From Candidatus Desulfaltia sp. (GTDB taxonomy: Bacteria; Desulfobacterota; Desulfobacteria; Desulfobacterales; ETH-SRB1): DNA of 64,000 nucleotides. The stretch spans positions 70,536 to 134,535 of the forward strand of contig JAUSPN010000040.1 in the NCBI GenBank assembly GCA_030656555.1, given 5' to 3'. Shown here piece by piece: positions 52,165 through 63,719 of the stretch. Numbering within the stretch: the stretch's first letter is position 1; each line of letters starts with the position of its first letter. The position numbers were made by a program, and so were the translations under genes. The notes beneath the pieces are model-generated. The model was given only the letters and a program-made list of their open reading frames with translations. It had not been told where the DNA came from and ran no database searches.

Positions 52165-54206
52165 ACGAAGCAGGAATGACGGATAACTGGTCTGAAGCAG
52201 ATGAACTTTGCGTAAATACGATACGCACACTTTCAATGGATGCTGTTCAAAAGGCCAATTCCGGACATCCGGGCGCGCCAATGGGACTTGCGCCGGCGGC
52301 ATATATCCTGTGGACGCGTATTTTAAAACATAACCCGAAAAACCCTGACTGGCTGGACAGAGACAGATTTGTTCTTTCCGGAGGCCATGCATCCATGCTT
52401 TTATACAGCCTTCTTTATCTTTGCGGGTATGATTTAAGCTTAGAGGATATAAAAAATTTCAGACAAATGGGCGGCAAAACCCCGGGACATCCTGAATTCA
52501 GGCATACTCCGGGTGTTGAAACAACAACCGGCCCCCTTGGGCAGGGCTTTGCCAATGCAGTCGGCATGGCAATGGCTGAAAGGCACCTTGCGGCAACATA
52601 TAACCGCCCTAATTGTGATATTGTGGATCACCATACATTTGTAATGTGCGGCGACGGGGACATGATGGAAGGGATTACATCTGAAGCCGCATCCCTTGCC
52701 GGCCACCTTGGTCTTTCCAGGTTGATCTGTATTTATGATGATAACAAAATTTCTATTGAAGGGGGCACGGATATATCCTTTACGGAAGATGTCGCCCAAA
52801 GATTCAAGGCATATAACTGGCATGTCCTACAGGTTGATAACGGAAACGATCTAAATGCGATTTATAAGGCTGTCATTGAGGCAAAGAAGGAAACAGATAA
52901 GCCCTCCCTGATTATGCTGCGCACACATATTGCATTTGGCAGCCCAAACAAGCAGGACACATCCGATGCTCACGGAGCGCCTCTTGGCGAAGAAGAAATC
53001 CGTCTTACAAAGAGAAACCTGGGGTGTCCTGAAGACATCTCTTTCTGGGTGCCTGAGCAAGCTCTTGAAATATTTAGAAAATGTGTCGACATGGGAAAAG
53101 AAGCTGAATCAGTGTGGCAGGAAAAGTTTAAGGCTTATGCTGATAAATATCCTGATCCGGCAAAAAAATGGATTGATGCCATAAGCGGAGGATTAAAGGA
53201 TGGATGGGATGCGGATATCCCGCATTTCGAAGGCTCCGTTGCAACGCGGGCAGCATCCGGCAAGGTGCTCAATGCTATTGCAGGAAAGGTTCCCGCTCTT
53301 GTCGGAGGTTCTGCTGATCTGGCTCCTTCAAACAATACAATTATCAAATCTTCCCATGATTTTCAAAAAAATATGTATGACGGCAGGAATATCCGCTTCG
53401 GAGTCAGGGAACATGCAATGGGAGGGATTCTGTCCGGCATGGCCCTTCATAAGGGCATCAGGCCTTACGGGGGAACATTCCTTGTGTTTGCAGACTATAT
53501 GCGGCCGTCAATACGTCTTGCCTGTTTGATGAAATTACCGGTAATATATGTTTTTACTCATGACAGTATTGCGGTCGGCGAAGATGGGCCGACACACCAG
53601 CCTGTCGAACACCTGGCCGGTTTAAGGGCCATTCCCGGGCTGACCTTAATCCGTCCCGCAGATGCCGTGGAGACAGCAGAAGCATGGCGTATTGCAATAA
53701 AGAGTGTTGATAGTCCTGTTGCCCTGATTCTGAGCCGCCAGAAGCTTCCTGTATTGGACAGGTCAAGATATGGTCCGGCAGAAGGGCTTGCAAACGGCGC
53801 TTATATCCTGTCTGATTCAGAGGGGTCTGATTCAGAGGGCAAACCGGATATTATCCTGATAGCCTCGGGCTCGGAGGTTCATATAGCTCTAACAGCCGCC
53901 GGAATTCTTGCGGATCAAGGCGTTTCAGTCAGGGTAGTCAATATGCCGAGCTGGGAACTTTTTGAAAAAATGCCGCAGGAATATAAGGATAAAGTACTGT
54001 TGCCGGATGTGAAAAAGCGCGTTGCAGTTGAAGCTGGCATTCCAATGGGATGGGAACGATATGTTGGAAACAGCGGCGTAATAATCGGTATAACCGGCTT
54101 TGGAGTTTCAGCGCCCGGCAGGCTTGTCATGGAGAAATTCGGATTTACACCCGAAAATATAGTTCAAAAGGTAATTAAAAAATGGGGATTCCGCAGTTTA
54201 CCGTAA
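52161..54206 (+). CDS. tkt: Transketolase
   Basis: [15 protein letters not shown] and GDGDMMEG (TPP-binding motif), plus [17 protein letters not shown] prefer the ATG at 52161, which overlaps the MFS stop as ATGA. Confidence 0.95.
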
Positions 54207-54481
54207 ATCAGGATGCCGAAGGTGTTTTCCGGTTTAAGGGAGAGCTGAACATACATGGCATTGAATACCTGAAAGAGTTTGTTGATACTTCTTTTGCTGA
54301 AGCAAAGGAAATTTCTCTTTGTCTGGCAGAGGTAACATTTGCAGACACGGCATCGCTGCAGTTTCTTATCGCTTTGAGGAGGTCGCTGGAACCGAAGATT
54401 AAATGGAGGTTGCTGGAATTGTCTCCTGAATTGGAAAAAATTTTGGGAATAAGTGCTCTTAAAACAGCCCTTGTGGATTAG
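54182..54481 (+). CDS. STAS-domain protein (anti-sigma-factor antagonist-like)
   Basis: 99 aa. The pattern F.GEL.......L........L.L..V.F.DS...Q.L reads here as [13 protein letters not shown]. Confidence 0.7.
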
Positions 54482-54495
54482 TTGATTGGAGGAAC

Positions 54496-54885
54496 ATGAA
54501 AAAACTTATCCTGGTGGTAGATGATTCTCCTACTATTCGATCGTCGATTTCCTTTTGCCTTGGTAATGCCGGATATAAGGTATCAGAGGCTAAAGATGGA
54601 AAAGACGCCCTTGAAAAGCTGGCGAACATGAAGGAAGAAGGGCAAATTCCTTCCCTGATTGTCACCGACGTCAATATGCCTCAAATGGATGGTATTACTT
54701 TCATAGAAATGGTCAAGAAAGGCGATTTTCGCTTTCTTCCCATACTTGTTCTTACCACGGAATCGGAAGAGTCAATGATAGAAAAGGGAAGAGCTGCCGG
54801 GGCTTCAGGATGGCTGGTAAAGCCTTTCCGCCCTGAGCAATTTTTGTGGACAATAAAGAAACTGGTCTGGACTGTTAATGAATGA
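54496..54885 (+). CDS. cheY: CheY-like response regulator
   Basis: VVDDS, VTDVNMPQMDG and LVKPF motifs; 129 aa; directly upstream of cheA. Confidence 0.9.
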   Translation: MKKLILVVDDSPTIRSSISFCLGNAGYKVSEAKDGKDALEKLANMKEEGQIPSLIVTDVNMPQMDGITFIEMVKKGDFRFLPILVLTTESEESMIEKGRAAGASGWLVKPFRPEQFLWTIKKLVWTVNE

Positions 54886-57001
54886 ACATGAAGAAACCTT
54901 GCAGGTCTTTTTTGCTGAAACAGAAGACCTGCTCAGAAGATCGGAAGAGAGCCTGCTGCACATGGAGGCTGCTCCCGGACCCGGGCCTGACCTGGAAGAA
55001 CTTTTTAGAGCAATTCACACCCTAAAGAGTGGTTCTGCCATGGTAGGGTTTAATACTCTTTCCAAACATGTTCACCTTATCGAAAACCTTCTGGACCGGA
55101 TCAGAAACAATCAGCTTCCAATAACCAGGCCGCTTATCTCCTTTCTTCTGGAGGATGTTGATTTTATCCGCGCCATGGTGGACAGGTGCGCCAATGGTGA
55201 GGATATTGATCCTGATATTTTAACTGCTCGCAAGTCACAGTTAGACCGTTTTCTGGGCATAGCAGGGGCTTCAGAAAAAGAGGAGGCGACCCGGGAAACA
55301 GCCGCTGATTCCGCTAAAGCCAAGCAATGGTATTATTACCACATTGATCTTAAGTTTAGAGAAAACCTTTTCAATTCCGGTCATGATCCGCTTCTTATGC
55401 TGCTGAATCTAACAGATCTGGGAGAATGTGTGGAAGTTGTAGCGGATACTTCCGAGCTTCCCTGCTATAAAGAGATGGATTTTTATAAACTTTATATTTC
55501 ATGGCGGCTCATTCTGAAGACTACTGCATCTATTCGGGAAATCGAAGATGTCTTTATGTTTGTCAAAGATGAACATAATATCGTAATTGATGAGATAACC
55601 GACCGCTACATTGAAGGAGTCGATCTTCAATTAGGAGCAATACCTCTGGGTGAAGCCCTTGTCAAAAGAGGCGGTATTACCAAAGAAGATTTGAAAAGCG
55701 CTCTTGACAAGCAGAAGAAGCTTGGAGAGATTCTGGTAGATGAAGGAAAAATTAATAAGGAAGCGATTCAGAAGGTGGTTTCCCTGCAGCAGGAAAGCCG
55801 TTATGTCTATAGAAAAACAAGCTTGCGGATAGATGTAAAAAAGATAGACCATCTGGTCAACCTTGCCGAGGAAATCGGAATCAATCTCTCCAGGGTGCAG
55901 AGCCTCCTTATCAGAGAAGGGGATCTTTCCAGGAATGAAATCGAACAAGAGACAGAAAACCTGCTCAAGATAAATCGTGAATTTCAGGGGCAGGTAGCCG
56001 GCATACGGATGTTTTCTCTGAAAGGAACTTTCCAGCGGTTTCAGCGGATTGTTAGAGACGCCGCCTATGATCAAAAAAAACAGATAAAGGTTATTCTGTC
56101 CGGCATTGATACGGAACTGGATAAAGAGGTAATCGAATATATAGCAGACCCATTAAAGCATCTGGTTCGGAACTGTGTGGATCATGGTATAGAGCTACCT
56201 GAAGAGCGGGTGGCGGCAGGAAAACCCGCGGAAGGAACAATCGAGTTTAAGGCATACCAGAAGGGTGGGAAGATATTCATACAAATTTGTGACGATGGTA
56301 ACGGTCTTGATATAGAAAAGATACATCGCCGTGCTCTGGAAATGGGGCTCAATACAGCAGGTGAAAAATTAGACGATGACAGACTTGTGGAGATCCTCTG
56401 CCACCCTGGTTTTTCTACTGCATCAAGCGTAACCGAACTCTCTGGAAGAGGGGTTGGCCTGAATGTCGTCAAGACAGAAGTTGAGCGGGTTGGAGGGTTA
56501 ATGCAAATTGAGACGAAAAAGGGAAAGGGAACCGTATTCACTCTGGTTCTTCCTCTGACCTTTGCCCTCACCGAGGCTCTGCACGTACGGGATCAGGGCA
56601 GATCTTATCTGGTGCCTCTCTGGGGAATAACAGGAGTAGAAAAGTTTGAACCGGAACGTGTGCGAACCTTTGGCGCAAATGAAAAAGTTTATAGGTTCAT
56701 GGGAGAATATCTTCCTCTTATGAATTTATGTCGTATTTACAAAACGATGACATCGGAGAACGACCGCGATGGGACGATTACGGTCTTTCTTGATACTGGA
56801 AAACAAAGATTCGGAATCCTTGTTGACGAAGCGCTTGATCCCTATAAGGTGGTAATCAAAACTATTGAATCAAACTATCGGAGTGTCAGAGGAGTAAGTG
56901 GCGCAACTATCATGGGAGATGGTTCTGCGGCGATAGTTCTTGATCTGCTTGGGCTCGAGGAAATTTTTTTCAAACACTCATCACCGGGAGGTGAAGTATG
57001 A
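54878..57001 (+). CDS. cheA: Chemotaxis histidine kinase CheA
   Basis: The Hpt domain has FRAIHTLKSGS. The HATPase has DDGNGLD and GRGVGLNVV. A CheW-like C-terminal domain is present and there is no receiver domain. Confidence 0.95.
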   Translation: MNEHEETLQVFFAETEDLLRRSEESLLHMEAAPGPGPDLEELFRAIHTLKSGSAMVGFNTLSKHVHLIENLLDRIRNNQLPITRPLISFLLEDVDFIRAMVDRCANGEDIDPDILTARKSQLDRFLGIAGASEKEEATRETAADSAKAKQWYYYHIDLKFRENLFNSGHDPLLMLLNLTDLGECVEVVADTSELPCYKEMDFYKLYISWRLILKTTASIREIEDVFMFVKDEHNIVIDEITDRYIEGVDLQLGAIPLGEALVKRGGITKEDLKSALDKQKKLGEILVDEGKINKEAIQKVVSLQQESRYVYRKTSLRIDVKKIDHLVNLAEEIGINLSRVQSLLIREGDLSRNEIEQETENLLKINREFQGQVAGIRMFSLKGTFQRFQRIVRDAAYDQKKQIKVILSGIDTELDKEVIEYIADPLKHLVRNCVDHGIELPEERVAAGKPAEGTIEFKAYQKGGKIFIQICDDGNGLDIEKIHRRALEMGLNTAGEKLDDDRLVEILCHPGFSTASSVTELSGRGVGLNVVKTEVERVGGLMQIETKKGKGTVFTLVLPLTFALTEALHVRDQGRSYLVPLWGITGVEKFEPERVRTFGANEKVYRFMGEYLPLMNLCRIYKTMTSENDRDGTITVFLDTGKQRFGILVDEALDPYKVVIKTIESNYRSVRGVSGATIMGDGSAAIVLDLLGLEEIFFKHSSPGGEV

Positions 57002-57459
57002 AAATAAAGAAATGGCACGGTATTTTGCTGATTTTTCTTCTTTCATGGCCTGCAGGAGCACAGCAACAGAAAACAAATAGTTATGTTGGGTCTGCAGCAT
57101 GCCAATCCTGCCACGAAACAGAATATAGGGCTTTTTTGAATCATGCCAGGAAAAGCCGCTCCTTTGAGAGCGTAGAAAAGATGAAAAAGGGTCTTACTGA
57201 TGACGAAACCAGGGGGTGCTATAGCTGTCATACTACTGCCTATGGTAAACCAGGCGGTTTTACAAATCCGGAACAGACGCCTGAACTCAAAAATGCAGGA
57301 TGTGAGGTCTGTCATGGTCCAGGCAAACTCCACGTCGATACGCAAGACCCGGCTCAAATCATAAGGAACGTGACCATAGATATTTGCCGGAATTGTCATA
57401 CCGAGGACAGGGTAAGCGCTTTTCGTTACAAACCAACAATCTATGCCGGTTCCCATTGA
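56998..57459 (+). CDS. Periplasmic tetraheme c-type cytochrome
   Basis: A signal peptide precedes four CxxCH motifs (CQSCH, CYSCH, CEVCH, CRNCH). The start overlaps the cheA stop (ATGA). Confidence 0.85.
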   Translation: MKIKKWHGILLIFLLSWPAGAQQQKTNSYVGSAACQSCHETEYRAFLNHARKSRSFESVEKMKKGLTDDETRGCYSCHTTAYGKPGGFTNPEQTPELKNAGCEVCHGPGKLHVDTQDPAQIIRNVTIDICRNCHTEDRVSAFRYKPTIYAGSH

Positions 57460-57475
57460 ACTGGAGGTAAGATCA

Positions 57476-59796
57476 ATGAAAAATCCTGTTTATGCACTTT
57501 TAATAAGCATGAAGTTGCGAGCTAAGATATTGGTTGCGACTATCGTGGTTGTATCTGTTTTTATGGGGCTTAGTCTCTATCAAAGCCTTGTAATCAACAA
57601 AAAGACCGCCATGAACCAGGCGTCGGAGTTTTCAAATCACATGCTGGATAACATTTACAGCGCCATCAGGTTTCCCATGTCGGTTGGGGATGAAAAAACA
57701 GTAAAAGAGCAGATGAAGGACGTAAAAGAGCACATGGATGGCGTTCAGGTTTATATCGCGGACTTTGACCGGAATATAACCTATGCATCGGAAAAGGAAC
57801 GTATTGACCTCAGCTTAGAAAAGTGTCTCCAGAAAGATGACTCGCGCAACGCCCTGGTCAAAGCGCTGGCAACAGGCAAAACTCCGGGAATATCATTTCT
57901 CGAAACAGAGAGTAAAGATCCTTTCCTGGTAACCATTAAGCCGATTCTTAATGAATCATCCTGCCACCACTGTCATGGAGCCAGCAGAAATGTCCTCGGC
58001 GCAATGGTCATGAAGCAGCCTGTCAAGAATCTGTTTGCTACTATCAATTACACCAGAAACAGGCTTTTTGTCTATTTTGCGGCTGCCCTCGTAGGAATGG
58101 TGGTCTTTATCAATTTCTTCTTTTCCAAGCTTGTTTCGCGGCGGATTAATCTGCTGAAAGAAAAAACCAGCCTGGTAGCTGCCGGAGATGTTACGGTGGA
58201 AACTGTCGATGATCATCAAATTCGATCGGGGGCATGTCCCGCAACTTCAACCAGATGGTCAAGAACATACGCGACCGGATGGAATATGCCAACAGCCTGA
58301 AACTTGGGATCATCGATCCGTTTTTCATGGTCGATCCGGAACTGAACGTGACCTTTATCAACGAAAATGCAGCACGCATGTCCGGTGTGTCACCGGATAA
58401 TGCTATAGGAAAGCCATGCCATGAAGTGTTTAATAGCTCGGTCTGCGACAAGAACTGTCCCGTAAAGAAGGCCCTGGAAACCGGTAAGGCTGCGAAAGCC
58501 GAACGCATGACTCTGACGGATCAGAAGGGAAATAAAATCCCGGCAATGTCCATCTCTTCCGTTCTAAAGGATTCTTCAGGAAAGATACTGGGAGCGTTTG
58601 AGATCATCCGCGATCTGACTGTCGAGGTGGAAGCCGAAAAGAGCCTTCACGAAGCATATCTCCGGGAAGGCAACGCAAAACAGGAGCTGGAAAAGAAGGT
58701 AGAGGATCTTTCCGGAATGCTCAAGCAGGTGGCCATGGGCGATTTTACCATGCGTGGAACTCTCTCAGGAACAGAAGATGCTATGGATATTATGACCAAA
58801 AGGATCAATGAGACGCTCGACGGTATAGTGAATTTGATCTCACAGGTCAAGAATCACATTGTTCCGGTAATCAGGGAAGTTGCGCAGATATCTAAGGGAA
58901 ATCAGAGTCTCTCCCAGCGGACAGAGCAGCAGGCATCAGCTATGGAGGAGATAAGCGCCACTCTGGAACAGCTTGTCTCAAACACTACTGAAAATCTGAC
59001 AAATACCCGCCATGCGGATTCTCTTTCCAAAGATGCCGTGAAAGTAGCTCAGACTGGGGTAGAGGAGGTGGGAAAGACATCTCATGCAATGATTGAGATG
59101 TCAAATGCGAGCCTGAAAATCGTTGAGATGGTGGAGCTTATCAATGAAATTACATTCCAGACGAATCTGCTATCCATCAATGCGGCTATTGAGGCTGCTC
59201 GTGCAGGAGAACAAGGGCGCGGATTTGCGGTTGTAGCCACCGAGATACGGGATCTTGCGAAAAGAAGCGGGTCTGCATCCAAGGATATTCAAACACTGGT
59301 CCGGGAGATTATGAGCAAGGTGACCGCAACAGGGCAGTGGGTGGACAAACTGAAAGAATGTTTTACCGAGATCGTGCAAACATCAAAGCAGGTCTCAGAT
59401 GCATTGGGAGAGGTCACCATGGGGAACGAGGAAAGCTCGAAGGCGATCGAACAGATCAGCCATGGAACCCAGGAGCTTAGTGATGTGAACGAAAAAAATG
59501 CCTATTTTGTGGAAGAGATTTCGCAAGAGACCCAAAAGCTTGCGGAAAAAGCACAGCAGCTTCATAATATAACCGGGGTATTTATTCTGGGGGATAAGGA
59601 GGGTGGAGGCAAGGAGGAGCAAAAGGAAGAGGATCTGAAAATTGAAAAGGACCCGCTGCCGGCCCGCAAGAATCGCCGGAAGTCTGAAGCTCTTTCCACC
59701 CCGCTGCATGAGGATATGCTGACCAAATCACCTTTGGATGACATAAATGAAGATTTGTTGGAAAAAGAGTTTGAAGGAGGATTTGAGGAATTCTGA
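57476..59796 (+). pseudogene. Methyl-accepting chemotaxis protein with periplasmic CxxCH heme motif and cytoplasmic Cys-PAS, interrupted by a 1-nt frameshift inside the HAMP domain
   Basis: ORF 57443..58300 carries TM1, a periplasmic domain with CHHCH, TM2 and the first half of a HAMP. ORF 58234..59796 carries IGGMSRNFNQM (second HAMP half), a PAS and the MCP signalling domain ([25 protein letters not shown]). The frames overlap at 58213-58300. Confidence 0.7.
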
Positions 59797-60245
59797 TGCC
59801 AGGAACCCAATACGTTGTCTTTTCAATAAACCAGCAGATTTTCGGGATTGAAATATTCAAAATAAAAGAGGTCTTAAGCTACCGGAAGGTCACCCCTCTG
59901 CCGCAAGTGGAAGAGTTTGTCAAGGGAATCATCAACTTACGTGGCGCTGTCATTCCTGTTTTTGACTTGAGGGAAAAGTTCAATCTTCCTGTAAAGGAAT
60001 ATACAAGGTTTCATGTGATTATTGTTGTTGAAATTGCGGGGCGGATTATGGGCGTCATAGTTGACGAAATTTCGGATGTAGTGGAGATTCTCCCCGAAGA
60101 GTTTCAAACAACAGGAAACCTTCCATCGAACCTCCAGCGGAAGTACTTGAAGGGGGTCGGGAAAAAGCAAGACGAAATGATAATTCTCCTGGACATAGAA
60201 CGTCTGTTAAGTCGTGAAGAGCTCGAATTGGTAGATGCGGCATAG
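59796..60245 (+). CDS. cheW: CheW coupling protein
   Basis: 149 aa. YVVFSINQQIFGIEI and INLRGAVIPVFDLR are typical CheW motifs. Confidence 0.9.
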   Translation: MPGTQYVVFSINQQIFGIEIFKIKEVLSYRKVTPLPQVEEFVKGIINLRGAVIPVFDLREKFNLPVKEYTRFHVIIVVEIAGRIMGVIVDEISDVVEILPEEFQTTGNLPSNLQRKYLKGVGKKQDEMIILLDIERLLSREELELVDAA

Positions 60246-61095
60246 AACCATGCCCAGGCATAAAATACTCCCGGAAATATCTGAAAAAGATTTTAATCTG
60301 TTCCGCAACCTTGTGAAGAAGGAGGTGGGAATCTACATCCGGCAAGGGGGGAGGAAAATGCTTGGCCTGAAGCTGTCTCGCCGGTTGCAACATATTGGCT
60401 TTTCATCTTATTCTGATTACTACCGCTATCTCCTTGAGCCCGAACAGAAGAAAGAGTTGCGGCATCTGATCAACATTGTTACTATTGACCAGACCAGCTT
60501 TTTCAGGGGAAAGCAACAGCTTGAGATTTTATCCAAGCGCATTCTTCCGGAGATAGTTTTGCGAAAAATAGAAAAAAAACATATCCGGATATGGTCTTCC
60601 GGGTGTTCCACCGGCCAGGAACCTTACAGCCTGATAATGCTTGTTTATGAAATGGATAATGTGGATACATCCTGGGATATCAAGATTCTGGCCACTGATG
60701 TAAATACGTATTCTCTTAAGATCGCTTACCTTGGGGAATATAGGGCCGATCAGGTTACCGAAATTCCGCCTGCTTATCTTGCAAAATACTTTCGCAGGGA
60801 GAGCATGGGGGGTGAGGAGATCTTTTGGATCAAGGAGAGCTTGAAAGAAAGATTGATTTTCAGGCGGCTCAATCTTTTGATGCCTGGAAACCGGCTTAAA
60901 GGGCTCATAGACCTGATTTTTTGTCGCAATGTAATGATATACTTTGATTCTGCGACAAAGAAGAAAATTATTGATCAATTCTACCGCCTTCTTGAACCAA
61001 AAGGATACTTGTGTCTCGGTCTTTCCGAATCGCTTTTGGGAATTGATGATCGCTTTGAACTAATAGGAAGAGCTATCTATCGTAAAAAGGAATAA
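60235..61095 (+). CDS. cheR: Chemotaxis protein methyltransferase CheR
   Basis: IWSSGCSTGQEPYSL SAM-binding motif. The start could be 60235 or 60250. Confidence 0.9.
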   Translation: MRHRTMPRHKILPEISEKDFNLFRNLVKKEVGIYIRQGGRKMLGLKLSRRLQHIGFSSYSDYYRYLLEPEQKKELRHLINIVTIDQTSFFRGKQQLEILSKRILPEIVLRKIEKKHIRIWSSGCSTGQEPYSLIMLVYEMDNVDTSWDIKILATDVNTYSLKIAYLGEYRADQVTEIPPAYLAKYFRRESMGGEEIFWIKESLKERLIFRRLNLLMPGNRLKGLIDLIFCRNVMIYFDSATKKKIIDQFYRLLEPKGYLCLGLSESLLGIDDRFELIGRAIYRKKE

Positions 61096-61099
61096 TGTT

Positions 61100-61690
61100 G
61101 TGAAGCGATTTTACAGTCAACAATTTAAAAAAAATGTGATTATGCTCGGCTCAGGAGAATATTTTGTTTCAAAGAATGGAGAAATCCTTTATACGGTTTT
61201 AGGGTCGTGCATTGCCGTATGTATTTACGATATTGAAAAAAAGATCGGGGGAATGAATCACTACATGTTGCCTGGTATGCTCCATCCGGATGAAATCCTT
61301 ACATCAGAAGCAGGACGATACGGCATGTATGCGATGGAGCTTCTCATCGGAGAGTTTATTAAATACGGGACAAGAAGAGAGAATCTTATAGCCAAGATAT
61401 TTGGCGGGGGAAATGTTTTAAAATTCCGAGGAAGTGACGGCGATGTAACAGGCTCGAATATCCGTTTTGCAAAAAAGTTCCTCGAACTGGAGGGGATACC
61501 TGTACAAAGTGAAGATTCCGGTGGATATAGCGGCAGAAAAATCCTCTTTTTTACAGACACGGCAAAAGTTTTGTTGAAACGGTTAGATGCAGAAAAAAAT
61601 CAGAAAATTTTTGATAAGGAGAGGACTTATAAGGGCATGGTCTTACACAAAAGACAGACCGTGTCATCAGGGTCCGTTGTTTTGTTTTAG
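61100..61690 (+). CDS. cheD: Chemoreceptor glutamine deamidase CheD
   Basis: LGSCIAVCIYD (catalytic Cys) and NHYMLPG motifs; GTG start. Confidence 0.85.
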   Translation: MKRFYSQQFKKNVIMLGSGEYFVSKNGEILYTVLGSCIAVCIYDIEKKIGGMNHYMLPGMLHPDEILTSEAGRYGMYAMELLIGEFIKYGTRRENLIAKIFGGGNVLKFRGSDGDVTGSNIRFAKKFLELEGIPVQSEDSGGYSGRKILFFTDTAKVLLKRLDAEKNQKIFDKERTYKGMVLHKRQTVSSGSVVLF

Positions 61691-61693
61691 CAT

Positions 61694-62737
61694 ATGAAAC
61701 CAATACGCGTACTTATTGTAGATGACTCTCCTATAGTCCAGTTGGTTCTTAGACGTATCCTTTCCGAAGAGCCCGATATAGACGTAGTGGGAGTTGCATC
61801 CGATCCGTTTGAAGCCAAAGATTTAATTATTGAAGATAAGCCTGATGTCATTACTCTCGATATTGAAATGCCTCGTATGAACGGTATCACCTTTTTAAAA
61901 CGCCTTATGAGCTACTCCCCCATTCCGGTGATCATGATCAGCTCTTATACCCGCAAGAACAGCATGCGAACCATGGAAGCCCTTGAAGCGGGAGCTGTTG
62001 ATTTTGCAACCAAACCGTCTCAGGACTTAGAAAAAGGTTTTGCGTCATTGCGCGACGAAATAGTCAACAAGATCCGGGCCGCAAGCCAGGCTCGGGTCAA
62101 ACCCTTTTTTTTGTTGGGTAAGACGCCGATAAAGATAGGAAAAACGCCGGATACAATTGCAAACAAGCTCATTGCTATAGGGGCTTCTATTGGGGGGCCC
62201 AAGGCCATTCAGAAGCTTCTTTGCAGTATCTCTTTTCAGCCACAGGGTATCGTGATTGCGCAACATATGGCTGCACAATACACACGGTCCTTTGCTGAAA
62301 GGCTCAACAACCTCCTCGCTTTTGAGGTGCGGGAAGCCCGTGACATGGACATCGTAAATCAGGGCAGGGTCTTAATTATGCCCGGAGGGAAACATATGCG
62401 AGTTGTCCGTAATGGAGCTGATTATATGGTTCGGCTCGACGGGACATCGTCCATACAACATCCTTTGGCAGGTGTAAACTGCTCGATAGATGTGCTGTTC
62501 CACTCGGTTGCAAAAAGCGCCGGTCCAAATGCAATTGGCATAATATTGACTGGAATGGGAAAAGATGGAGCTGACGGACTGGCTGCAATGAAAGAGGCGG
62601 GAGCTTATACTATTGCCCAGGACGAGGCAAGCTGTGTTGTTTTCGGGATGCCGCGAGCAGCCATCGAGAAGGGCATTGTGGATGCAGTTGCCTCTCCGGA
62701 AGATATCCCGGCTATTCTTCTCAACAATGTCAAGTAG
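61694..62737 (+). CDS. cheB: Chemotaxis response regulator protein-glutamate methylesterase CheB
   Basis: The receiver has TLDIEMPRMNG. Esterase motifs are GASIGGP, QHM and GMGKDGA. Confidence 0.95.
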   Translation: MKPIRVLIVDDSPIVQLVLRRILSEEPDIDVVGVASDPFEAKDLIIEDKPDVITLDIEMPRMNGITFLKRLMSYSPIPVIMISSYTRKNSMRTMEALEAGAVDFATKPSQDLEKGFASLRDEIVNKIRAASQARVKPFFLLGKTPIKIGKTPDTIANKLIAIGASIGGPKAIQKLLCSISFQPQGIVIAQHMAAQYTRSFAERLNNLLAFEVREARDMDIVNQGRVLIMPGGKHMRVVRNGADYMVRLDGTSSIQHPLAGVNCSIDVLFHSVAKSAGPNAIGIILTGMGKDGADGLAAMKEAGAYTIAQDEASCVVFGMPRAAIEKGIVDAVASPEDIPAILLNNVK

Positions 62738-62790
62738 TCGAGTAGTTGAGTGGTTAACCACTTGACTAATTTCCTGCTCGACAACTCGAC
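62737..62790. repeat. Word-type imperfect palindrome (GTCGAG / GTTGAG units around GGTTAACC)
   Basis: AGTTGAGTGGTTAACCACTTGACT is centred on GGTTAACC. Outer arms are GTCGAGTAGTTGAG / CTCGACAACTCGAC. Confidence 0.6.
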
Positions 62791-62813
62791 CAAATGCAAA
62801 GCGAAGCGGAGCT

Positions 62814-63719
62814 ATGGCCAGAATTCTGATAATTGATGACAGTAAACTTATATTGCATGTAGCAAAGACTATCCTGAGCAAGCAGGGCCATCAGGTCCTT
62901 TTAGCTGAGGATGGAAAAACCGGATTGCAGGAGGCTGCGATAGAACATCCTGATTTGATTCTTCTGGATCTGATTTTACCAGGGATGGATGGATACCAGG
63001 TTTGTCAACAAATCAAGAAAGAGGCTCTCACGTCGGACATACCTGTCATTATGCTTACCTCCAAGTCTGAACCATCGGACAAGGTGCGCGGTCTGGAGAT
63101 GGGAGCTTCGGATTACGTTACCAAGCCCTTTGACGAAGGGGAGCTGATGGCCAGAGTTAATATCCATCTGCAGATCAGGAAGCTCCATGAAAGCCTGAAA
63201 GAGAAGAATCGGCAGCTCAAAGAATTGGCCAATCGTGATGGTTTGACGGGCCTGCACAACCACCGGTATTTTCAAGAGACGATCTCCAGGGATTTTCAAA
63301 AAGCTTTCCGTTACCACGAATCACTTTCATGTGTTATGTTAGATATAGATCACTTCAAGAGATTCAATGATACTTACGGTCACCAGACAGGAGATGTGGT
63401 CCTTAAAACACTTGGTGGTTTGATCGATAAATTAACACGGGATAGCGATCTGTCGGCCAGATATGGGGGAGAGGAGTTCGCTTTGCTTATGTATCATACG
63501 GCATCGCAAGAAGCCTTTATGGTTGCGGAACGGCTGTGGAAGGCTGTGGAGCAGCATAAGTTTCAGGCAGATAATCAGGTTCTGACGGTGACCATCAGCC
63601 TCGGGGTTGTCAGCTTTCCACATCCGGAGATTGCCGATGCCAAGGCCCTGATCGAATGCGCTGATAAGGCATTGTACCGGGCAAAAGAAGAGGGAAGAAA
63701 TCGGGTCGTAGTTTTCTGA
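62814..63719 (+). CDS. Response regulator-diguanylate cyclase (REC-GGDEF, WspR/PleD-like)
   Basis: The receiver has LLDLILPGMDG and VTKPF. The GGDEF domain has the active site RYGGEEF, preceded by an RDSD (RxxD) I-site. Confidence 0.95.
   Translation: MARILIIDDSKLILHVAKTILSKQGHQVLLAEDGKTGLQEAAIEHPDLILLDLILPGMDGYQVCQQIKKEALTSDIPVIMLTSKSEPSDKVRGLEMGASDYVTKPFDEGELMARVNIHLQIRKLHESLKEKNRQLKELANRDGLTGLHNHRYFQETISRDFQKAFRYHESLSCVMLDIDHFKRFNDTYGHQTGDVVLKTLGGLIDKLTRDSDLSARYGGEEFALLMYHTASQEAFMVAERLWKAVEQHKFQADNQVLTVTISLGVVSFPHPEIADAKALIECADKALYRAKEEGRNRVVVF

Follow-up and report, generated by a model that had tools for sequence, protein, structure and literature searches.

The locus described here raises the question of what a chemotaxis-type (Che) operon does in a non-flagellated organism, and of why such an operon should enclose the gene for a periplasmic tetrahaem cytochrome c. 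It lies in a stretch of 64,000 nucleotides (nt) from Candidatus Desulfaltia sp. (Desulfobacterota; Desulfobacterales; ETH-SRB1; assembly GCA_030656555.1, contig JAUSPN010000040.1, positions 70,536 to 134,535 of the forward strand), which is referred to as the window throughout and whose first letter is position 1. Across genomes, the cytochrome is tied to the periplasmic sensor domain of the protein encoded next to it, whatever the output of that protein, and not to the kinase CheA. On balance, we consider it probable that the operon is an F7-like Che system put to non-flagellar use and equipped with this cytochrome-sensor pair, the receptor of which, a methyl-accepting chemotaxis protein (MCP), has probably been inactivated in this genome.

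Open reading frame (ORF) listing and Pfam scans of the window placed the genes for STAS, CheY, CheA, the tetrahaem cytochrome, the MCP, CheW, CheR, CheD, CheB and a protein with receiver (REC) and GGDEF domains, in this order, in a tightly packed and co-directional row on the plus strand, as the first-pass annotation of this DNA had listed them. They form an 11-gene operon with intergenic gaps of -17 to +76 nt. The same gene order was found in at least 12 orthologous clusters from several families of the order, and the arrangement is therefore not a chance juxtaposition. CheA, CheW and the MCP are each single in the genome (one tblastn match each). The features of the operon, with TM for transmembrane segment and aa for amino acids, are the following:

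54182..54481, + strand: STAS protein, anti-sigma-factor-antagonist-like, first gene of the operon (Pfam PF01740, E 2.4e-10)
54496..54885, + strand: CheY-like single-domain response regulator (Pfam PF00072, E 1.6e-26)
54878..57001, + strand: CheA histidine kinase with Hpt, dimerisation, HATPase and CheW domains, REC domain absent (Pfam)
56998..57459, + strand: periplasmic tetrahaem cytochrome c, c554-like, 153 aa (Pfam PF13435, E 1.3e-18)
57476..58300 (alternative start 57443), + strand: N-terminal MCP fragment with TM1, sCache_heme, TM2 and the first half of a HAMP domain (PF21563)
57962..57976, + strand: haem-c attachment motif CHHCH in the periplasmic domain of the MCP (sensor alignments)
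58217..58222, + strand: frameshift site in the MCP gene (DNA alignment with 12 orthologues)
58234..59796, + strand: C-terminal MCP fragment with the end of HAMP, PAS, second HAMP, 36H domain, linker and GFEEF (Pfam PAS_9, MCPsignal)
59796..60245, + strand: CheW (Pfam PF01584, E 2.9e-38)
60235..61095, + strand: CheR methyltransferase (Pfam PF01739 and PF03705; PDB matches)
61100..61690, + strand: CheD (Pfam PF03975, E 1.2e-26)
61694..62737, + strand: CheB methylesterase with REC and esterase domains (Pfam PF01339 and PF00072)
62814..63719, + strand: REC-GGDEF diguanylate cyclase, final gene of the operon, the next gene being convergent (PF00990, E 6e-49; PF00072, E 1.9e-31)

The STAS protein carries a putative phospho-site motif, FADTAS, and its gene heads the orthologous clusters too, in which the CheY orthologues are 66–88% identical. 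Promoter and terminator scans returned counts at the level of shuffled sequence and were uninformative.

The association between cytochrome and sensor was analyzed in two sets of genomes. A public scan with one genome per species yielded 80 cytochrome loci, 68 of which were at least 41% identical. At 57 of these 68 loci, the cytochrome gene was followed, at a distance of approximately -1 to +150 nt, by a same-strand ORF with one CxxCH motif at about residue 160, and the exceptions were mostly contig ends. MCPs accounted for 43 of 58 sensor partners and histidine kinases for 13, with outputs comprising MCPs with or without a PAS domain, hybrid histidine kinases and one MCP-PilZ fusion. The second set was a phylum sample of 301 evenly drawn genomes, in which each of the 37 high-scoring cytochromes was followed immediately by an sCache_heme sensor, and the cytochrome preceded 35 of the 47 high-scoring sensors. 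Another cytochrome clade, of greater divergence, which includes a pair on contig C48 of the same genome as the window, was paired in 14 of 22 cases. The cytochrome tree groups by partner output (2 changes, whereas shuffles gave around 13), and the distances among cytochromes correlate with those among sensors at a Mantel r of 0.63, a value to which shared ancestry contributes. Pairs were present in Desulfobacterales, Desulfobulbales, Desulfovibrionales, Syntrophobacterales, Desulfarculales, Thermodesulfobacteriaceae, Nitrospirota and one Acidobacteriota metagenome-assembled genome (MAG).

The first-pass annotation had staked its proposal, ahead of this analysis, on the cytochrome gene being conserved in orthologous clusters, and this largely held, the gene being kept in 12 of them and degraded in that of genome G008. 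It had also pointed to the overlap of the cytochrome start with the cheA stop. The overlap is present (ATGA), and the cytochrome gene has its own Shine-Dalgarno sequence, with GGGAGGTGA preceding the start codon; the linkage that is conserved, however, is the one with the sensor domain and not with CheA.

A similar profile was observed for presence and absence within the family. Among 16 family genomes, 10 contained the sensor as well as a strong cytochrome match, 5 contained neither, and G008, which belongs to the same genus as the window, contained the sensor together with a cytochrome remnant. Four same-genus genomes lack both the strong cytochrome match and the sensor. The cytochrome pseudogene of G008 (L117:6600-7060), which lies in a cluster that has kept its synteny otherwise, has lost haems 1–3 through an internal deletion of approximately 290 nt, and near its 3′ end it carries an insertion of around 135 nt whose ends are inverted repeats (TAGTGTCTGTCCGAAAA...TTTTCGGACAGACACTA), which from its sequence looks like a miniature mobile element. 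The genus is thus visibly losing this Che system.

The operon is flanked by a transketolase gene upstream and by a convergent pyrophosphate (PPi)-phosphofructokinase gene downstream, the latter identified via its full-length orthologue. The interval between these two genes in sister genera contained the cytochrome gene alone (67–80% identical), the ten che genes all being absent. The corresponding stand-alone cytochrome loci are:

L016:1711-6535 (genome G011)
L018:6444-11409 (genome G015)
L026
L027

Masked sequence was considered as the cause of these cytochrome-only loci and was rejected, there being no N runs. Genus g3 holds the full cluster also at another locus (L019, L028). Each of the four genomes with a stand-alone cytochrome carries one unlinked close sensor, namely a histidine-kinase paralogue without an adjacent cytochrome. 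Since the co-occurrence with the sensor persists where the two genes are unlinked, these data fit a cytochrome that would act in trans on any receptor with this sensor module.

An ordinary periplasmic carrier, either regulated by the pathway or hitch-hiking in the operon and having no interaction with the sensor, would also be found alone between transketolase and PPi-phosphofructokinase, and would be in line with the G008 cluster, which lost the cytochrome and kept the MCP, and with the 12 of 47 close sensors that have no cytochrome. We nevertheless regard such a role as very improbable. All 37 close homologues lie directly 5′ of a sensor, with both output types and across orders and phyla; the cytochrome tree tracks the type of partner; and presence and absence co-vary in the family (10 with both, 5 with neither, and the remnant in G008), also where the genes are unlinked. 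Moreover, a chemotaxis-type pathway has no transcriptional output, and a regulated target gene would be unusual.

With regard to the cytochrome itself, it contains a Sec-type signal peptide and four CxxCH motifs (CQSCH, CYSCH, CEVCH and CRNCH), and it scored 68.1 bits against PF13435, where the cut-off is 20.8. Its N-terminal three-haem region matched cytochrome c554 (PDB 1BVB; E 7e-9). Cytochrome c554 has a five-coordinate haem with nitric oxide (NO) chemistry. Among 58 homologues, each of the four CxxCH motifs was at least 98% conserved, K52, Y29 and Y82 were each at least 91% conserved, and only two histidines outside the CxxCH motifs were invariant, namely H112 and the C-terminal H153. With just two additional invariant histidines, not all four haems can be bis-histidine-ligated unless other residues serve as ligands, and one or more of them may be five-coordinate. 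Mean column identity was 66% for the cytochromes versus 41% for the sensors.

The likely start of the MCP is the ATG at 57476, located 16 nt past the cytochrome stop and preceded by a GGAGGT Shine-Dalgarno sequence. The receptor is composed of a TM segment, the sCache_heme domain, a further TM segment, HAMP, PAS, a second HAMP, the 36H domain, a linker and a C-terminal GFEEF. Against PF21563 (cut-off 27), the fragment in the window scored 28.4 bits and the intact orthologue 31.0 bits. A profile made from 25 sensor domains matched PDB entries 3B42 (E 7.8e-11) and 3B47 (E 2.8e-8), and its match to the sCache domain of WalK, a hint at the level of the fold, was weak (E 0.002). Across 58 sensors, and also in the 25 aligned ones, the residues N-x3-C-x-H-C-H-G ... 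L-G were invariant. One CxxCH at about residue 160 was present in all 57 paired sensors, and hydrophobic segments lie on both sides of the sensor domain. In agreement with the first-pass annotation, which had proposed a periplasmic haem-c sensor of the DcrA/GSU0582 type with a CHHCH motif together with a cytoplasmic PAS domain, both elements were found, PF21563 was above cut-off and the profile matched 3B42; we infer that the sensor binds one covalent c-type haem. A PMxxGD motif is also conserved among the sensors, and its methionine aligns with the LMMAGD segment of GSU0582. Since a Met-on/Met-off switch has been described for Geobacter haem sensors, this methionine is by analogy the probable distal haem ligand.

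Two side observations concern the cytoplasmic part of the receptor. Firstly, its PAS domain (window 58400-58450) contains the cysteine motif C-[HY]-E-V-F-x4-5-C-x2-3-C-P, with three cysteines, as judged by eye, in the window MCP and in a kinase paralogue on contig C3 of the same genome, and two in distant orthologues; it is possibly a metal or cofactor site. Secondly, the C-termini of the MCPs (window 59770-59793; orthologues at L014, L020 and L023) read GFEEF, GFKEF or GFEEY after a long acidic linker, which presumably resembles the CheR/CheB-tethering pentapeptide of 36H receptors.

The best reading of the pair, as predicted from the two sequences, is a two-protein periplasmic sensor of redox (or gas). 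Instead, the cytochrome might be a ligand-handling partner that acts on NO or some other small molecule, by binding or reduction, as co-sensor, filter or reset enzyme of a receptor that senses NO or a gas, which we consider clearly unlikely. The alignment of the cytochrome with the N-terminal three-haem region of c554 and the presence of H112 and H153 as sole invariant additional histidines are in line with such a role, as are literature data according to which Pseudomonas sCache_heme domains bind NO, and GSU0582 and GSU0935 bind NO and carbon monoxide. Haem ligation, however, is not readable from sequence alone, and methionine, lysine or tyrosine ligands are possible (K52, Y29 and Y82); furthermore, the hosts are strict anaerobes, and redox sensing is the role that has been suggested for DcrA and the Geobacter sensors.

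The two-protein sensor might be used more than once in this organism. The paralogue on contig C3 is 68% identical to the MCP over the sensor, HAMP and PAS domains and ends in HisKA-HATPase, and contig C48 carries the divergent pair mentioned above. Both loci are on contigs of the same genome:

C3:25614-32263 (L109:115-6764), outside the window: partner-switch locus with a hybrid kinase, a REC-PP2C-HATPase_c_2 protein, STAS, the sCache_heme kinase and STAS
C48:13443-19973 (L110): divergent pair locus with a sigma-54 activator, the cytochrome, the sensor kinase, a REC-PAS kinase and a REC protein

The C3 hybrid kinase has the composition HATPase-REC-REC-Hpt, and the phosphatase protein that of REC-PP2C(SpoIIE)-HATPase_c_2, a domain architecture that we take to be the one reported for Shewanella CrsR. 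The C48 pair consists of a 155-aa tetrahaem c554-like cytochrome and an sCache_heme (CYKCH)-PAS histidine kinase. It is quite possible, if short of probable, that one cytochrome serves two receptors, i.e., the F7-like MCP, with cyclic di-GMP (c-di-GMP) as output, and the unlinked kinase, with a switch of the CrsR/CrsA type, and that the pair constitutes a portable redox or gas sensor in several phyla. If true, a single periplasmic redox signal would drive both second-messenger and sigma-factor responses.

In the window, the MCP that the first-pass annotation had described as one gene is divided into two ORFs (57443/57476-58300 and 58234-59796) by a deletion of 1 nt between positions 58219 and 58220, within the HAMP domain. 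According to the DNA alignment, the lost base is the G of an aspartate codon (GAT/GAC) that is kept by all 12 aligned orthologues, such that the window reads CAA-ATTC where every orthologue has CA(A/G) GA(T/C) TC. The intact same-genus orthologue is a single protein of 778 aa and reads VDNHRDSIGSLSRNFNQM through HAMP. The change from AAGATT to AAATT took place at a site with no long homopolymer. Programmed -1 frameshifting was rejected, with 12 of 12 orthologues in frame and no X XXY YYZ slippery heptamer present. The C-terminal ORF starts at an ATG where orthologues have CTG or TTG (Leu), and production of a soluble PAS-HAMP-36H fragment from it is unlikely because the G-run is only 1 nt from this ATG.

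A Logan contig from run SRR13727525 was 100% identical over 7,392 nt, deletion included, and the gene caller split the MCP there as well. From these sequences, the frameshift is quite likely to be real; that it is very recent is suggested by the otherwise intact state of the two MCP halves and of all neighbouring genes. If the deletion is real, the frameshift in the sole MCP disables the input to the whole pathway, which most likely has lost its transmembrane input and represents a very recent pseudo-operon. That the missing base reflects an error of sequencing or assembly, or a variant carried by a minority, is somewhat unlikely in our opinion; the receptor would then be intact in the population and the pathway functional. 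This alternative would account for two halves that are undamaged otherwise and 77–83% identical to orthologues and for ten other intact operon genes; in addition, the MCP is the only one of the genome, so that its loss would strand an 11-gene operon, and the genome is a MAG of 107 contigs. It does not sit well with the independent Logan contig, identical across the site, with the lack of a long homopolymer, or with same-genus relatives that exhibit genuine decay (the G008 cytochrome) or total loss of the system. We therefore propose that the receptor here be annotated as a probable pseudogene.

The class of the Che core was assessed by means of its receptor and its conserved proteins. Residues 159-453 of the MCP query, a stretch reaching from HAMP to the C-terminus, aligned with residues 225-518 of Escherichia coli Tsr with a single 1-residue gap, located in HAMP, which places the receptor in heptad class 36H; alignment with the 44H receptor of Thermotoga maritima needs 14 extra residues. 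The best solved match of CheA was the F7-class E. coli CheA (346.7 bits versus 250 bits for T. maritima CheA), and CheW likewise scored higher against E. coli (112 bits) than against T. maritima (54 bits). CheR gave 139 bits with Pseudomonas aeruginosa CheR1, slightly above the 127 bits of Salmonella CheR, and was less decisive. By gene order, receptor class and the CheA and CheW matches, the core resembles F7 systems ("ancient F7") rather than Wsp/ACF. Membership of Wsp/ACF was rejected in view of a CheA without REC, a single CheW and the presence of CheD, CheY and STAS. Stage 1 F7 clusters have been described as containing genes for an anti-sigma-factor antagonist, cheY, cheA, cheW genes, a 36H PAS receptor, cheR, cheD and cheB, followed by additional genes, among them those for a second antagonist and for a serine phosphatase, and their role was called unknown (Ortega et al. 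2020, PMC7184735). Stage-1 and stage-2 F7 systems have CheY and do not control the flagellar motor (PMC7184735).

As for the output, the receiver residues DD...D...T...K of the REC-GGDEF protein are intact, and a GGEEF active site and an RDSD I-site lie at 63438-63479. The first-pass annotation had read the cyclase motif as RDSD-x4-RYGGEEF and WspR-like; the spacer is LSA (x3), giving the RxxD-x5-GG[DE]EF spacing that is usual in many cyclases. The best solved match was PleD, followed by a Leptospira-type REC-GGDEF protein (6ZXM), with WspR lower. What remains of the likeness to WspR is the REC-GGDEF architecture, given that PleD scores higher and that the Che core is F7-like. The position of this gene within the cluster was borne out, as it stands last in each of the eight orthologous clusters that extend far enough, and it has no further kinase gene as a neighbour. 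Synthesis of c-di-GMP is for this reason the likely output of the pathway. The c-di-GMP network of the genome is small, with three GGDEF domains found. Models of FliG, flagellin and FlhA had no match in the genome, which is estimated to be 100% complete, and matched control genomes; consequently, flagellar motility is not the output, and the suggested motility branch through CheY is unlikely in its flagellar version.

The stand-alone CheY, conserved as the second gene of the cluster, and the two PilB/GspE-like and two tandem PilT-like ATPase genes found in the genome would suit an output in motility, in which CheY controls type IV pili and the REC-GGDEF protein is a phosphate sink or side branch. 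This seems quite improbable to us. The flagellar genes are absent, none of the PilB- or PilT-like ATPase genes is beside the Che cluster, CheY is kept in F7 stage-1 and stage-2 systems without flagellar-motor control, and the conservation of REC-GGDEF in the cluster is as strict as that of CheY. "Chemotaxis" labels for this operon are misleading. As a separate observation, Desulfovibrio sp. UBA6079 (L075:10421-12784) encodes a cytochrome-paired MCP with a C-terminal PilZ domain (PF07238, E 7e-10), which provides another link between the sensor module and c-di-GMP.

Taken as a c-di-GMP-producing system, the pathway would operate as follows. Through the cytochrome, electrons would move to and from both the pool of periplasmic carriers and the sensor haem; the redox or ligation state of this haem would report the redox status of the periplasm. 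The signal would pass through TM2, HAMP, PAS, the second HAMP and the 36H domain to CheA and CheW. CheA would phosphorylate CheY, CheB and the REC-GGDEF protein, which, once activated, would make c-di-GMP, and adaptation would depend on CheR, CheB and CheD, tethered through the C-terminal GFEEF of the receptor. Within this scheme, we infer the electron transfer from cytochrome to sensor, the phosphotransfer from CheA to GGDEF and the role of STAS.

Several points weigh against this interpretation. The frameshift could be a systematic read error or a minority or majority variant, and one and the same run may underlie both the Logan contig and the MAG. The phosphotransfer from CheA to REC-GGDEF is assumed by analogy with Wsp, a search of the genome for a PilZ domain detected none, and control of pili by CheY is possible. 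Assignment to F7 is based on gene order, heptad class and best matches among solved structures, and should be taken as a resemblance. With regard to the cytochrome, the 12 of 47 close sensors without an adjacent copy include the C3 kinase paralogue of the same genome, and in the G008 cluster the MCP is intact although the cytochrome gene next to it is destroyed. The chemistry behind adjacency and co-occurrence could be an electron relay, ligand handling or maturation. Finally, GSU0582 and GSU0935 were characterised without a partner cytochrome, so the fold does not generally require one.

Taken singly, the parts are known, namely haem-c MCPs, F7 cores and Che pathways with a GGDEF protein at their end. 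For the cytochrome-sensor pairing, for this cluster and for the gene neighbours of DcrA, we found no describing paper in a search that covered few subscription journals and is weak evidence; to that extent, the view of the first-pass annotation that no description of the combination is known still stands. Haem-c chemoreceptors such as DcrA, GSU0582 and GSU0935 have been treated as self-contained, and the co-inherited cytochrome is a candidate redox partner for them. It should not carry a respiratory c554 label. The cluster would also tie an F7-type Che core to c-di-GMP synthesis in a non-flagellated organism.

Two further observations on the genome are recorded here. The predicted start of STAS overlaps the final 25 nt of the transketolase gene (window 54182-54206), and in the same-genus orthologue the two genes are approximately 500 nt apart; the promoter region of the operon therefore differs between close relatives. 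Contig C15 (16709-18944; L111:6210-8445) encodes a CheD-HDOD/HD fusion of 448 aa beside a second CheR, with a dCache-HAMP-GAF hybrid kinase and receiver genes, and no CheA or MCP, nearby.

Compared with known systems, the cytochrome shares with c554 of Nitrosomonas europaea (1BVB, PF13435) the first three CxxCH motifs and their spacing, as well as C-x2-CH-x3-G-(F/Y)-G and GCE-x-CHGPG. It is shorter (153 versus 211 aa), has a different C-terminal part that ends in an invariant histidine, and is encoded with a sensor gene, whereas c554 is encoded with hydroxylamine oxidoreductase.

The receptor has in common with GSU0582 and GSU0935 (3B47 and 3B42) a periplasmic sensor between two TM segments, a single CxxCH before the last strands and an MCP output; the flanking N-E-x2-C...LGG also aligns, and the CHHCH of the window aligns with the CQSCH of GSU0935. 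This family (DUF3365/Tll0287) is now classed as sCache_heme (bioRxiv 10.64898/2026.02.01.703092), with which the profile matches are in accord. The window subfamily differs in being invariantly CxHCH, in contrast to the Geobacter CQSCH, and in lying directly behind a tetrahaem cytochrome gene, an arrangement not reported for the Geobacter proteins in the literature found. The window receptor further adds a cytoplasmic PAS and a second HAMP domain and is of class 36H, while PF21563 takes its name from a Geobacter receptor of class 40H. DcrA of Desulfovibrio vulgaris Hildenborough, a c-haem MCP sensing oxygen or redox potential, is similar in its periplasmic c-haem and cytoplasmic PAS domain; it was compared by description, as a putative orthologue. 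In the loci examined, Desulfovibrionales MCPs of DcrA-like architecture (668-787 aa) are encoded after a homologue of the cytochrome gene. The host of DcrA is flagellated and chemotactic, whereas the receptor of the window belongs to a Che operon with GGDEF in a non-flagellated organism.

The Wsp system of Pseudomonas (WspA-F and WspR) is likewise a Che-like pathway whose final gene encodes a REC-GGDEF protein with an RxxD I-site, and the presumed route in common runs from receptor to CheA, on to the phosphorylated cyclase and to c-di-GMP. Unlike the system of the window, it has a CheA (WspE) fused to REC and two CheW-like proteins, and it lacks CheD and a stand-alone CheY. Ancient F7 systems (Vibrio cholerae cluster III, P. 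aeruginosa Che2 and Shewanella oneidensis Che1) share with the window the order STAS, cheY, cheA ... cheR, cheD, cheB, a 36H receptor with PAS and the lack of flagellar-motor control. Their receptor is soluble and of the Aer2 type, with haem b in PAS, in contrast to the transmembrane receptor with periplasmic haem c described here; they have two CheW, whereas the window cluster has one, located after the MCP; and only the latter has a cytochrome gene between cheA and the MCP. The ancient F7 clusters end in a STAS and serine-phosphatase module, in place of which the window cluster has REC-GGDEF. In gammaproteobacterial F7 systems the partner-switch module is part of the Che cluster; here a CrsR/CrsA-like module lies on contig C3, beside the histidine kinase that shares the sensor, and would receive the same sensory input along a separate route. 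If one cytochrome does serve both receptors, this arrangement would offer an initial hint at the function of the ancient F7 systems.

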